A stretch of DNA of 39,089 bases. Origin: Diploschistes diacapsis. Lineage: Eukaryota. The position numbers and the translations under genes are program-made. Below are positions 695-36,874 of the stretch, piece by piece. Location: positions 1 to 39,089 of the forward strand of contig JALAIB010000055.1 of assembly GCA_023645945.1 (NCBI GenBank), given 5' to 3'. The first letter of the stretch is position 1. Every line of letters starts with the position of its first letter. The notes beneath the pieces are model-generated. The model did not search any database. It was not told the origin of the DNA and saw only the letters and a program-made list of their open reading frames with translations.

Positions 695-1173
695 CTACTT
701 TTCTTCTCCAACCTTTGTCTCATCAAGAGCTCTCTGAATAGAGTCCTTGACGAAAGGGACCCTCAGTCCGCTTTTGACGTGCAGAGTCTGTGCCTTGTTC
801 CAATCCCACACATTCCCTGTAGTAAAGGGGTCGCGCTGAAGTAACTCGACCGCTTCTTCCTGGCTCGATGCCTCCAACAGGACCCAGCTGCCTTGAATTC
901 GAGCAGGCGTTTCTCTTCGATGGTCTGCGAATATTGGGCCTTGCCCCGGTTTGTTAGCATGCTGCTATCTTCGCAACGGAGCACTTTGTACTGACCCCCG
1001 GCTAGCCAGAAGTCTTTGGTTCGCGCAACGAATTCTTCATGGAGACTGGGTTTGAGTTAAGCAATGTCGTCTATTTCGCGCTCGCTCGGGCCTTACTCCG
1101 TTGTAACTTTGCGGTTTTCAGCAGCGCCCGGACCGTCGGGCAGGATGAACAAGAACTCGAACTTTTGAGCCAT
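695..1173 (-). CDS. YCII-related (YciI superfamily) protein, 3 exons, 123 aa
   Basis: Exons 1173-1097, 1045-996 and 939-695 with GT..AG introns give MAQKFEFLFILPDGPGAAENRKVTTDLHEEFVARTKDFWLAGGPIF...GSWVLLEASSQEEAVELLQRDPFTTGNVWDWNKAQ. This has the fungal YCII hallmarks: F-x-x-x-x-PD start, His, GGP, GS, EA-x-S-x-EE, DPF, VWD. Confidence 0.85.
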
Positions 1174-1781
1174 GGTGGGTATGCAAATCCTAGGCTGGAA
1201 AATGGATGGCTTTTTTGCACCGAGAATTTATACAGATTTATAAAAATAATGGACGAGATGAAAACATGTGGGCCAGTTAACACACACGATTGCTTTGACA
1301 TCTTTTACCGGGCCGGTCGACATGGTTCGGAATTCGGCTGCATGCATCGAGTTGACTACGGATTGCCGGATCATTTTGGAGAAGTCACGTACGTATTCCA
1401 TGTCCTTTTAAATGAATTCGATACACAGCTTATGAGACATTGCTTTCTTGTGCTACAATAAACAGCATTTAATGTATTGGTAACAACCCTTTTCGCCTAC
1501 ATCAAATCAGGTAATCAAGCAAGCAAATCGGGCATGGATGTTATTATTCAAGTAGATTCGAATAGCCGCAGATTCAGAGACCACGTCTTCGCAATGAAAA
1601 GAAGTTTCGTGCTCATTGGCAAGAGTCTTTGATTTCTTGTGTATCATATAGTCTTTGAAAATCAAGCCAGCCCATCTGAAACATTGAGAATCTATTCGTT
1701 CCAAGATTGGAGGACATGCAGATCCTTTAGCAGAACAAAAAAGATCCCCCCCAAATGTACCAGATACACCTGATAAAGTGC

Positions 1782-3782
1782 TCAGGCCACGATAGGGATA
1801 GAAGGACGACCTTCTTGCACCTGGACGAGCAAGTCGACGACCGGAGCTTGCAGGGTCGACAGTGTATCCTTCGTAGCTTTGGCGACGAGACCCAGTTGGC
1901 CCCTCTTCAGATGCGGTGCGAAGCCGTTGATGGCATCCGAGCCAAAATGGTCGAGGTTGAAAGTGTCCTCCATCCGCAGCATCTGCTTCGCGCGAATGTT
2001 GTTGAGGATCTCCAACTCATCCTCAGTAAGCTTCTCCAGACTCTCCTTGGCGTCCGGAGTAGCCGACGAAGAGTTGTTGAGAGCCGCAATCTTGTCGAGA
2101 ACAAGCTGGCGCTCTGCGGGAGTCGTTTCCTTGAACGCGTTAAGGCAGAAGTCTAACGTCTTGACGACCTCGCCGTGAGTGAGCTTGCCACCCACGTCAG
2201 CGTCTGCAGTTCCCTGAATGACTAGAAAGGTGTGAGTAAGTCTTCTGCAAATTCGTTGGAGCGAGAAAGCCTTACTGGGTCTGAACGCATCAAAAGCGAC
2301 GTCGAAACCATCGTCATCCCAATCACTCAGCACTGGCTCATCGCCACCTCGAATTTGCTTCATAGCACTCATAACAACAAGCAAAAACCTCGTGTATCCT
2401 TCAGCAACTTTAGTCGAATGCCATTTCGCTGCATTCAGCTCATCGCAGTCGCCTCTCATGACTGCGGAGATAGTCATTGCCGCAGAGAGGCCACTTGCGA
2501 GAGCCAAATGGACACCAGAGGAGAAGTATGGGTCAATAAAGCAGCCTGCATCACCAGCAATGCGTACATATGGACTGGAATAGGCGGAAGCGCTGTAAGA
2601 CCAATCCGATGCCTGTTTGATCCCAGTGACAAGCTCCCCCTTGTCGAGGATCTTGATGACATTGGGTGCAAGTTTTAGAGACTCTTTGTAGAACTCGGGC
2701 CCAGACGGAGATCCCAAAGCCTTCTTCTTTTGGGTTGAAAGATCTTGTCTCATGACAACACCAACAGACATAGTGCCGTCGTGCAAGGGGATGCACCATG
2801 CCCAGCCGCTGGCATCTGGAGAAATAAATTAATGTCACGTGAAATCATTGGTTTGAGAAAGAACAGTTTAAAAGTACCTGTCAGCGCTTCAAAGAACGGC
2901 TGGTTTTGCCTCGTCGTATCCATGGCATATTGGCTAGTACCTGACCAGTAGCCCCAACTGGCGACGTTCTTCAATCCTTGGTTGTACTTCCGATTCTTCA
3001 TATATTTGGTCGATACCAAACCCACCCGCCCGCTTGCGTCAACAAGGTATTCAAACCTGATTGAACCGGTGGTGCCATCCTTCCGTTTCCAAGATGCAGA
3101 AACGGGACGTCCAATATCCGCAACCTTAGCATCTTCCGGGACTTGGATACCGGAAGATTCACTGAATTCAATCCCTTCGACCTTGACACCGTCAAAAATC
3201 TTGGCACCGCAATCCCCTGCGTGTCTGAAGATGAGCTCGTCCGACTCCGAGCGAACCACATTCCACGTATATGCCTCCGGTCCGCCAGCAGCGATGTAGT
3301 CAGTCCCTAGTTATATATCAGCCATCGCCCGTACGACTTCATGGAAGGGCGAAGACGAGGCTTACATCCCTCCCGCTTCTTCTGGTTAAGCTTGAACGCT
3401 GCGCCAACCTGCGTACTGATTCAACGTCTGAGCCGTCACATGGGTAAAGCGTGCTTACTTTCTTAGTGAAACCGTGGTTCCTGAACTTAGAGTCCAGGTC
3501 AATATAGTGCAAGAAGGGGCGAAGCGATGCAAGCATGCTCTCGCCGACATGGTATCTGAATGCGTTCAGTACTGCAGTGCCATGGTTCATTGATGATATG
3601 CCAAAAAGGATTATGATTTCTCCAAAAAAAAAGAGAAAGCCTCCCTTCACATACCTGGGGAAAACGTCCGCTTCCAGCAGCGTGGTGCTGATTCCCTCAC
3701 GAGCCAGAGCACAGGCTGCATATGAGCCTGCCGGGCCACCGCCAATGACTAAGACTGCAGTTTCCTGGGGAATAGACATCAT
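1782..3782 (-). CDS. Flavin-dependent phenolic halogenase (Rdc2/RadH/GsfI type), multi-exon
   Basis: [13 protein letters not shown] motif; FPR|YHVGES; GFTKK|VGAAF (position of the catalytic Lys); [20 protein letters not shown] (WxWxIP halogenase motif, spliced near 2820); [24 protein letters not shown]. An in-frame 54-nt intron lies inside the 1782..2786 ORF (FRP|..|VIQG). Confidence 0.95.
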
Positions 3783-34290: not shown

Positions 34291-35194
34291 ATACGTTCGA
34301 AATTGAAAAATGTGGGCCGACGAAGAGTGATTACATTTAGGGACATAACGTGCCCGACATGATCGTGGTATATCTGTTCCTTTAGTCTCCGCAAGCTGGG
34401 CGAGATGTTTGAGACCATCCTCCGATGGCGTCGGCCAGGGGGCTCAGACTGTGCAATATCCTAGTCAATAACGCAACTTTAGCAACACTAGCTGAGCATG
34501 AACGCCGTATGAACATGCCGTCCCGAATGCCTAGTTCCTAAACTAAGTTACTATTGCAGTCTCAATAGGAGCGGACATTCGCTTACATGGCAAGGATCTA
34601 GTAAGTTGCCTTGAATAGTTGCATCATCTAGAAGATGACTAGCCATCTGCTCGGGGGCGGAAATTGACACCCTCAAAGCTGGCACCGACAGTTTTTTTTC
34701 GGTATAACTGTAAAGCTTGCAGGCCCCGTTGTTAAGCATGGACGCTCTCGTGGTTCGCTTAACGGACCGGCTAGTTGTGGGCCCAGAGAGCGCGGGTGGC
34801 TTTAGGGTCTGACGGCGGAAACGGCGGAGTGACTATAATTGCGACAATCTAGTATCGTGGTGCAAAGACAGATGGAGGCTTTTTGGATGAGTAGATCATG
34901 ATAGACTGGATCACTGCAAAAGCAGTGGGCACAAAACGGACCAATCGGAGCCATTGGAGAGACTTAACATCCGAGATATTAGGATGCTTAGCAATTGGGT
35001 GATTCAGCTACAAATTCCATTCATCGCAAAACAAAGAGCCTTGCAGTTATGCCTGCAGCTTTTCCTCCGACCGTGTGGTCCCGACGCTCGTACAAAGATC
35101 ACCACGGCCGTTCAAATCGACTGGCTACTTGCTCAGGACGTTGCCCCTCGAGATCTCTTCATCGCAACATCTCTAGGTATCTTCTAGCGGAACC

Positions 35195-36874
35195 ATGGCA
35201 CACTCCACTGCCACCCAGCCTTTGCAGGCTGGCTCTTCACCCACCCCAAGTGAGCCTCCAGTCGAGTCGTCCAAGTATGAGAACGGCGAAGATCTTCCGT
35301 CCAAAGGGACCGCCGCAGATGGTCCTCAACAAGTCGTCAATCCATTCCGCTCTGGCTTTCACGAGTTCCTCTTCGTCGGGGTTCTATGTGTCGCTCAACT
35401 CTCAACTCAATTCTCCCTAGGCCAGACTCTGAACCTCGTTCAAATTATTGGACGTACTTTCAACACCTCGAACCCGGGAACGTTGAGCTGGTTCGTCGCA
35501 GGCTATTCCCTTACGGTTGGCTCCTTCATCTTGATATCCGGACGGTTTGGAGACTACTATGGCTACAAGAGGCTCTTCATCATCGGCATGTGCTGGTTCG
35601 CGTTGTGGTCCGTGTTGGCCGGGCTTAGCAACTATTCGAATTATGTGTTCTTCATTTTTGCTCGTGTGTTCCAAGGTAAGTCGCATACTCGCTTGAGTGT
35701 TTCAGTCTCTCACTACCTGGGGCTAGGCATTGGCCCAGCAATCTGTCTACCGAATGCGGTTGCTCTCCTCGGTGCCACATATCCTGCGGGCATGAAGAAG
35801 AACCTCATATTTGCAACATTTGGCGCCGTCGCTCCCGGAGGTGCTGCTATTGGAGCTGTCTTTGGCGGCATTTTCCAAGACAATTGGCCATGGGCCTTTT
35901 ATAGCTTTGCTCTCGTTCTTTTCACAGTAGCATGCCTTGCATATCTCGTCATACCCAGCCGCATAGTTCAGACGAAGGACACAAGTCAGCTCACCTTTTG
36001 GCAGCTCCTCGAAACATTGGATATACTGGGAGGATTCGTGGGAATTATTGCACTTACTTTGATCAACTTCGCTTGGAATCAAGCACCAGCCGCTTCATGG
36101 GCATCTGCCGCTAGCATCACGACTCTCATCCTGGGCATATGCCTCGTTCCGGTCTTCTTCTATATCGAGGCTCGGATCTCACCTTCGCCGCTTATACCCT
36201 GGGATATTATCAATGCTGATATCGGTTTTGTGCTAGCGTGTATCTCCTGTGGATGGGCGGCTTTTGGCATTTGGGCATTTTACATTTTCCAGTTTTTTCA
36301 ACAAATCCGAGGCGCCAGTCCCTTACTTACTGCTGCCTACATAGTTCCCGTGGCCGTATCCGGTGCAATTGCTTCTATCGTTACTGGTCTGCTTCTCAAG
36401 TTTCTCCATCCAGCCTGGATCATGGTCGTGTCCCTCAGTTCATTTTTCCTTGCTGTCACGCTCGTTGCTACGGCACCTGCAGATCAAACATACTGGGCCC
36501 AGACATTTGTGGCCACGATATTTATAACATGGGGTATGGACATGAGTTTCCCTGCTGCCACGATCGTCATGAGCAATGCAGTGAAGCCGGAATATCAGGG
36601 AGTCGCAGCCAGTCTCATCATGTGGTAAGTCGAAGTGAAGAACGCACCCACATTGAGCGTCGATTCAGCACACTAACGGGGGTGTTCTAGCATCGTTAAT
36701 TACAGCATCTCCATAGGCCTCGGCTTTGCTGGCACTGTTGAGGTGCAGGTGAACGATGGTGATGTCTTGAAAGGCATTCGGGGAGCTTTGTACATGGGCG
36801 TCGGCTTGGCAGGCCTCGGTGTATGCCTGAGTCTCTTGTTTGCCTTTCTCCGTGTATACCCACGGTCTTCCTAA
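35195..36874 (+). CDS. MFS drug:H+ antiporter (DHA2, Atr1-like) efflux pump
   Basis: WFVAGYSLTVGSFILISGRFGDYYGYK; ARVFQG|IGPA; GMDMSFPAAT; QGVAASL; last exon IVNYSISIGLGFAG to TAA 36872-36874. An in-frame intron lies at about 35676-35727. Confidence 0.92.

Follow-up and report, generated by a model that had tools for sequence, protein, structure and literature searches.

A lichen PKS14-type gene cluster of Diploschistes diacapsis with TerD, a TerC-like monooxygenase, and one ChmK-like halogenase

What would a fungal gene cluster make if it combined the two early oxidases of the terrein pathway with a halogenase? The two branches of hydroxymellein chemistry had been taken to diverge once TerC has acted, TerD belonging only to the terrein side and halogenases only to its counterpart. 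[quoted passage not shown] An earlier note, made from the sequence alone, had placed between positions 695 and 36874 a nonreducing polyketide synthase (NR-PKS) with tandem ACPs and TE, divergent from a DH-psiCMeT-KR partner, two different flavin-dependent monooxygenases (FMOs), one halogenase, a YCII protein, an NmrA-like reductase, an O-methyltransferase (OMT), an MFS pump, and two regulators; Pfam searches of 42 chosen open reading frame stretches located every one of these classes there. Our answer, held with about even confidence, is that this is a lichen PKS14-type 6-hydroxymellein (6-HM) cluster in which both early terrein oxidases operate alongside one presumed K-type halogenase. The product is probably a one-chlorine compound, either aromatic or with a five-membered ring.

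The synthase pair, the oxidases, and the halogenase

From left to right, the window encodes YCII (−), halogenase (−), FMO1 (−), the TerB-like partner (−), PKS (+), FMO2 (−), Zn2Cys6 transcription factors TF1 (+) and TF2 (−), NmrA (+), OMT (−), a rhodopsin-domain fragment (−), and MFS (+). The features at the core of the argument are as follows.

1782 to 3782, minus strand: flavin-dependent phenol halogenase (Trp_halogenase/FAD_binding_3), ChmK-like by its identity to ChmK, about 558 amino acids
5427 to 7425, minus strand: FMO1, TerD ortholog of the phenol-hydroxylase type (FAD_binding_3 and Phe_hydrox_dim), five exons, one GC-AG intron
7986 to 11272, minus strand: TerB-like DH-psiCMeT-KR protein without KS, AT, ER, or ACP (Pfam PKS_DH_N/PS-DH/sdrA/KR), four exons, about 1047 amino acids
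10455 to 10964, minus strand: DH catalytic pair, His codon 10964-10962 and Asp codon 10457-10455, aligned to the DH domains of PsoA and CurK
11915 to 18612, plus strand: NR-PKS SAT-KS-AT-PT-ACP-ACP-TE, of the TerA clade and lichen PKS14 type by Pfam and tree, five exons, about 2158 amino acids
19179 to 20539, minus strand: FMO2, TerC-like (FAD_binding_3), four exons, the first of two codons, about 402 amino acids

Exon borders were set by eye and protein lengths counted by hand, apart from those of YCII and the halogenase. The exon sums of FMO1, the TerB-like gene, PKS, FMO2, and NmrA are divisible by three, and the core exons contain no stops and retain intact catalytic residues.

A position of the PKS outside the TerA clade had been named beforehand as the result that would speak against this type of cluster. 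In fact, the window PKS lies in a 26-row clade, supported at 100/100, with the PKSs of A. terreus, L. palmae, Periconia, and Xylographa pallens. The tree (41 rows: 26 top and 14 named lower matches, in addition to the window) was built from the first 300 residues of the PT-ACP-ACP-TE exon, a query that matched 414 proteins at E<=1e-100 (7999 scored), 25 of them at 880 bits or more and the next at 724. The summed identities are 60% with the A. terreus protein, 63% with that of L. palmae, 59% with Periconia, and 78% with X. pallens, compared with 44-48% for three outgroups. The protein cluster of the A. terreus match includes TerA (Q0D1N9), and that of the Periconia match includes the H. velutinum PKS BBL33412. 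Both ACP serines and the TE Ser/His are intact, and the residues of KS, AT, and PT were also read. The divergently transcribed TerB-like gene, whose KR catalytic Tyr is present, is a single copy in the assembly (next matches 20-37%).

The two FMOs resolve into different enzymes, as had been claimed. FMO1 is identified as TerD by identity and tree: TerD (Q0D1P2) aligns in four segments at 69, 64, 79, and 50%, the A. terreus match of FMO1 (68%) shares a protein cluster with it, and a FastTree phylogeny of 69 rows groups FMO1 with proteins of Xylographa, Cladonia, and Mollisia and with TerD at 0.93 (24 rows) and 0.98 (26 rows). FMO2, only 23% identical to TerD, is indirectly identified as TerC-like. 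Its intron directly after codon 2, with an identical start at the related metagenomic locus L001, reproduces an oddity described for terC and rslC, and the top Atlas cluster is named 'terC' (0.98); a named TerC was not found in a search of representatives and 10 opened protein clusters.

The halogenase is 69% identical to ChmK (379/551), its closest characterized relative among the 12 of 120 protein clusters opened, one of which contained BBL33413, reported to be ChmK (PMC9598291). It matches RadH at E 8.5e-181, and both WxWxIP and the RadH motif's Lys-Lys are present. The search gave 713 matches among 3845 candidates, and in a tree of 125 rows (129 supplied, 4 removed for short overlap) a 46-row clade with ChmK, supported at 0.89, mirrors the TerA clade in composition. 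A second halogenase, as in clusters with both K and N enzymes, was not found: there is one on the contig, and with ChmK as query the window gene is the only match in the assembly, which is fragmented. A Pfam PF04820 search of the assembly was uninformative, missing even the window halogenase. The protein P0122, 100% identical over exon 4 and 94% over the last two exons including an in-frame intron, is evidently this halogenase's database entry.

Some observations concern halogenases elsewhere. Locus L009 carries a similar one (1577-3454; 49-72% per exon); the NR-PKS that lies some 6-7 kb downstream of it does not belong to the TerA clade. ChmK relatives of Periconia, Pseudopithomyces, Lachnellula, and Phlyctema, from two fungal classes, fall in one 90% cluster (P0156), and ChmA relatives of Periconia and Pseudopithomyces in another (P0491), clusterings that may point to recent horizontal spread.

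Conservation and known relatives

The core of the cluster is not a peculiarity of one contig. A metagenome scan in which 80 of 163 PKS loci were kept yielded eight matches at 65% or above. In three of these, L001, L002, and L006 (82%), TerD, TerB, PKS, TerC, TF1, and TF2 follow one another in the order and orientation of the window, while L003-L005 are 95-99% identical to L001. The TerB-like protein scores 73% in the locus comparison, in the correct frame. The ratio of nonsynonymous to synonymous substitution (dN/dS) against L001 is 0.13-0.27 in all 10 exon stretches tested, and the core is thus under purifying selection. Halogenase exon proteins P0307, P0305, and P0306 come from sets whose longest contigs equal L001, L002, and L006 in size. 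In X. pallens (004171/004172/004174), as in X. parallela (002539/002540/002542), the locus tags of halogenase, TerD, and PKS are near-consecutive; those of halogenase and TerD are neighbors in X. opegraphella and five tags apart in Bathelium, and TerD and PKS stand together in X. soralifera. The core recurs in four Xylographa species and in L001-L006, and the best other matches of three window genes are from lichen fungi.

Two of the metagenomic loci carry additional genes. In L001, a kelch-repeat fragment (1834-2340, plus strand) lies beside TerD, where the window has its halogenase, and is perhaps a terF remnant; as a query it gave no match in the assembly, a weak test that does not imply absence. 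L007, a contig of 17.6 kb, contains TerD, TerB, TerA, an epimerase, and YCII, with TerC not found within it. Its NAD-dependent epimerase/dehydratase (15291-16322, plus strand; TerH-like class) lies between the TerA ortholog and YCII and likewise had no match in the assembly, which again does not imply absence. The psiCMeT of the window is about 112 amino acids shorter than that of L007.

The earlier note did not recognize this combination of genes, but similar sets have been listed before. Our comparisons draw on PMC12848540, PMC8453496, PMC8251887, PMC9144378, PMC9598291, PMC5635595, PMC9146135, PMC8304397, PMC12113121, PMC12542154, PMC6337363, PMC9533711, PMC8533459, PMC8262933, and PMC12711211. 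For cluster 8 (PKS14) of Pseudevernia furfuracea, a published table gives transporter, OMT, halogenase, FMO, DH-KR, NR-PKS (SAT-KS-AT-PT-ACP-ACP-TE), and FMO (PMC8533459, Table 3); the cluster shares by gene list the enzyme classes of the window and its halogenase-FMO-DHKR-PKS-FMO run. It differs in having nine genes with no named YCII, NmrA, or regulators, and an automatic annotation without TerC, TerD, or ChmK assignments or a product (PMC8533459). The CU-PKS-4/PKS14 cluster of C. uncialis (BGC0001489) has, like the window, TerA, TerB, and TerD homologs, one halogenase, and OMT, with an oxidized, methylated, and halogenated 6-HM proposed as its product; it is described as sharing only terA, terB, and terD with the ter cluster, and TerC is not reported. 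This lichen PKS14 trait of TerA, TerB, and TerD with one halogenase and an OMT is found in the window by enzyme class, and TerA-clade PKSs are known from Cladonia grayi, C. uncialis, P. furfuracea, and Graphis scripta.

Among characterized systems, the ter cluster of A. terreus (terrein, BGC0000161) shares with the window divergent terA/terB, TerD, a Zn2Cys6 regulator, and an MFS transporter, and has TerC where the window has a TerC-like FMO. It has neither halogenase nor OMT, whereas the window lacks the TerE, TerF, TerI, and TerH-type epimerase classes; for TerE (a multicopper oxidase) and TerF (kelch class) none was found on the contig, the rest of the genome having been probed with the kelch fragment only. 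The rsl cluster of Roussoella, that of Periconia, chm of Helminthosporium, and plo of Lachnum share TerA and TerB with the window and have TerC and a K-type halogenase, to which its TerC-like FMO and ChmK-like halogenase (69% to ChmK) probably correspond; rsl also shares an OMT and a second regulator. The pair of regulators is thus paralleled in rsl, where one of the two is incomplete, and this counts against an unseen combination. The rsl, chm, and plo clusters each pair a K with an N halogenase and are described as lacking TerD; in the window, a single halogenase accompanies TerD.

The window cluster is thus a member of the known, chemically uncharacterized lichen PKS14 family that differs from ter, rsl, chm, and plo. 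That this family was already known limits the surprise, and the cluster may already figure among the lichen 6-HM clusters compiled in list S4 of PMC12711211. In the literature found, which took in few subscription papers, a single cluster is nowhere credited with TerC and TerD as well as a halogenase, no product is named for lichen PKS14, and the combination is absent from the characterized clusters described there. A natural cluster of this composition, conserved across several lichen fungi, could serve to test whether TerD and an N halogenase are interchangeable at C-7, and it predicts a chlorinated metabolite as yet unfound in lichens.

The proposed route and its competitors

Given a TerA-clade PKS, TerD and TerC-like FMOs, and a ChmK-like halogenase, the chlorinated 6-HM-derived compound suggested by the earlier note can be soundly inferred, although the ring contraction offered alongside it finds no direct support. 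Judging from orthology, the PKS and TerB-like KR should very probably make (R)-6-HM. The ChmK-like enzyme would probably chlorinate C-5 of the isocoumarin, and with comparable likelihood the TerC-like FMO would hydroxylate C-8a, with C-1 leaving as CO2. Somewhat less surely, the TerD ortholog would hydroxylate C-7 in place of the missing second halogenase, C-7 being the carbon chlorinated by the N-type enzymes of rsl, chm, and plo. Published work places isocoumarin chlorination by K enzymes at C-5 and by N enzymes at C-7, and in Cox numbering the site of RslK is C-6 and that of both RslN and TerD is C-4, so that TerD and N would attack the same carbon if, as we infer, the two numberings correspond. 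The balance tips slightly toward methylation of one phenol by the OMT, as by RslP. The MFS protein would export the product and TF1/TF2 would switch the cluster on, while YCII and NmrA, more speculatively, probably handle reactive quinone intermediates. The most likely end product would be a C9 benzene or benzoquinone substituted at every ring position, monochlorinated, O-methylated, and polyhydroxylated, whose side chain is hydroxypropyl or propenyl. The lack of TerE and TerF favors an end point at the aromatic or quinone stage, as does reconstitution of the rsl pathway, which stopped at such a compound: heterologous rslABCKNOP is reported to halt at an aromatic chloro-methoxy C9 product. Chloro-methoxy propenylphenols are also described as co-occurring naturally with chloromelleins.

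Several considerations weigh against this route. Its chemical steps and their order are all deduced, whereas gene content, orthologies (that of TerC only indirectly), intact residues, and conservation are shown by the sequence analysis. TerD is only modestly closer to FMO1 than are generic phenol hydroxylases (53-62%, including that of A. niger), so the assignment is carried by tree and synteny more than by identity, and TerD is reported to be inactive in A. oryzae. The K-type call for the halogenase depends on its closeness to ChmK in a comparison without ChmN, PloK/N, or RslK/N, none of which was seen in the clusters opened. OMT, NmrA, and MFS lie beyond the loci of the relatives and are assigned to the cluster from where they stand and from the gene lists published for Cladonia and Pseudevernia; a 7-mer half-site common between genes of the window has no intergenic copy upstream of OMT or MFS. 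The compounds given for Diploschistes in the passages of a review (12 of 17 places) are depsides only. Finally, the window DH retains a catalytic His whose introduction into TerB cost that enzyme 95% of its 6-HM and gave pyrones, a point to which we return.

Where the route might go beyond the aromatic stage is suggested by its first competitor, in which ring contraction follows and gives a monochlorinated terrein-like cyclopentenone, or a methyl-ester (cryptosporiopsin-type) counterpart with OH for the second Cl. TerC and TerD are the early oxidases of terrein; rsl, chm, and plo are reported to reach the five-membered rings of cryptosporiopsin, cyclohelminthols, and palmaenones without terDEF; and a fragment of the TerF-like kelch class adjoins TerD in L001. 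However, terE and terF are described as essential for terrein and both classes are missing from the contig, which leaves ring contraction unproven, and the kelch fragment, in what was a weak test, matched nothing in the assembly. The catalyst is not known, propenyl chain and ring contraction in terrein- and cryptosporiopsin-type compounds both being stated to be unsolved (PMC8453496). We regard this outcome as possible but unlikely.

A second competitor, which we judge improbable, would stop earlier, with the lactone retained as a 5-chloro-7-hydroxy-O-methyl-mellein, as proposed for C. uncialis, and the TerC-like FMO idle or late. It would accommodate the reports that TerD hydroxylates 6-HM itself in vitro and that 6-methoxymellein is accepted by neither TerC nor TerD, and it agrees with the CU-PKS-4 proposal. 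Yet an idle enzyme sits poorly with an FMO2 that is intact, has a dN/dS of 0.17-0.18 against L001, and shares its promoter with TF1.

The DH domain of the TerB-like protein invites a different view of the chain itself. TerB is reported to have Gln46 in place of the DH His while keeping Asp215; in the window the domain is not visibly dead, and its His and Asp both match their counterparts in the DH domains of PsoA and CurK. Their spacing (His-Pro 9, His-Asp 169) equals that of TerB positions 46/55/215, and the pair is kept in four of four homologs (window, L001, L006, L007), with a DH dN/dS of 0.27. The complete H-x3-G-x4-P motif is found in L007, whereas in the window, L001, and L006 Asn replaces the Gly. 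Since P0484, to which the L007 PKS is 79% identical, branches in the PKS tree as sister to the Aspergillus group, the His is probably ancestral. With an active dehydratase, the PKS pair would make a propenyl-resorcylic acid (or unsaturated pyrone) and not 6-HM. Early dehydration has been argued to be necessary by an enzyme not known (PMC8453496), and TerC and TerD are reported to convert the propenyl acid to a triol. Against it, TerB Q46H made no unsaturated products: the PT domain was disabled and pyrones appeared without dehydration. Moreover, the motif Gly is lost, the propenyl chain of terrein arises with a His-less TerB, and an ancestral His may be idle. In this form we find the proposal strongly doubtful. 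Its extension, in which the dehydratase builds the propenyl chain on the synthase and TerC, TerD, and one C-5 halogenase lead on to a chlorinated terrein-type cyclopentenone, is a long shot only a little less doubtful; if true, it would link the terrein pathway to that of cryptosporiopsin and provide the early dehydration that is missing, a step for which the fallback candidates are the YCII protein and the PIP-family NmrA. Whatever its activity, the His-bearing homolog carries naturally the residue that, introduced into TerB as Q46H, disrupted its cooperation with TerA, and it could serve to test the contact proposed between DH and PT.

That the cluster is conserved yet silent or decaying in D. 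diacapsis, with no product, is hardly credible: repeats lie at both ends, a neighboring gene is truncated, the TerR consensus is not enriched (13 vs 10.4 expected, compared with 7 vs 0.85 in L001), and no matching compound appears in the Diploschistes review passages, but the core exons are free of stops and keep their catalytic residues.

Accessory genes, regulators, and contig ends

The preferred reading, a route through 6-HM to a monochlorinated product, also draws on the genes that flank the core.

695 to 1173, minus strand: YCII-domain protein, three exons, about 123 amino acids; Pfam YCII E 0.003, below cut-off
21052 to 21062, minus strand: CGG-N5-CGG site in the divergent promoter of TerC and TF1, matching the TerR consensus except at the first base
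21992 to 24206, plus strand: Zn2Cys6 factor TF1, candidate TerR counterpart; Zn_clus E 2.5e-8, Fungal_trans; dN/dS 0.19 against L001
25900 to 28351, minus strand: Zn2Cys6 factor TF2, 3' end approximate; weak Fungal_trans; collinear in L001; dN/dS 0.18
29375 to 30349, plus strand: NmrA/PIP-family reductase (Pfam NmrA); best PDB matches eugenol synthase and PCBER, E about 1e-9
31674 to 33043, minus strand: OMT (Methyltransf_2); best PDB match MpaG', E 1e-28
33486 to 34260, minus strand: fungal rhodopsin-domain (Pth11-like) fragment between OMT and MFS, covering profile positions 27-111 of 237
35195 to 36874, plus strand: MFS transporter, MFS_1 E 2e-25

The spliced YCII model is open, and its best PDB match, TftG, reaches only E 0.65. 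A homolog 61-68% identical adjoins TerA/B/D in L007, which ties YCII to the family, and YCII genes are described as companions of NR-PKS clusters such as dba. Eugenol synthase and PCBER work via quinone methides, and the resemblance of the NmrA protein to them provides a weak lead toward side-chain chemistry. The rhodopsin-domain fragment had been missed in the earlier gene list; it is probably truncated and outside the pathway, and its family has more than 150 matches in the assembly.

Visual inspection across a pair of short introns identified the six Cys of TF2. The CGG-N5-CGG site is a single match, against a chance expectation of 1.27, and is conserved in L001. The 7-mer half-site occurs eight times in the window, always between genes (3.1 expected), five times in L007 (1.3), and three times in L001 (2.1), but it was selected after seeing the data and is a lead only. 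A small gene considered between FMO2 and TF1 (20784-21770) has no Pfam match and reads as promoter. The gap between TF1 and TF2 (24206-25900) is about 1.4 kb longer than its L001 counterpart, and a short 8-nucleotide tandem repeat occupies 28937-29001 in the divergent promoter of TF2 and NmrA.

Both ends of the contig enter multi-copy repeats. The cluster described as self-contained is so in the sense of being bounded by repeats and assembly breaks, which does not imply completeness. On the left, positions 1-141 are the end of a multi-copy repeat, and 140-302 a palindromic element, resembling a miniature inverted-repeat transposable element (MITE), with many copies in the assembly. On the right, 37757-37960 is a MITE whose 62-nucleotide terminal inverted repeats are 98% complementary, with nine other copies listed in the assembly, and 38196-39089 is an AT-rich repeat present in multiple copies, with 29 other places listed at 82-94% identity, that looks like a DNA transposon mutated by repeat-induced point mutation.

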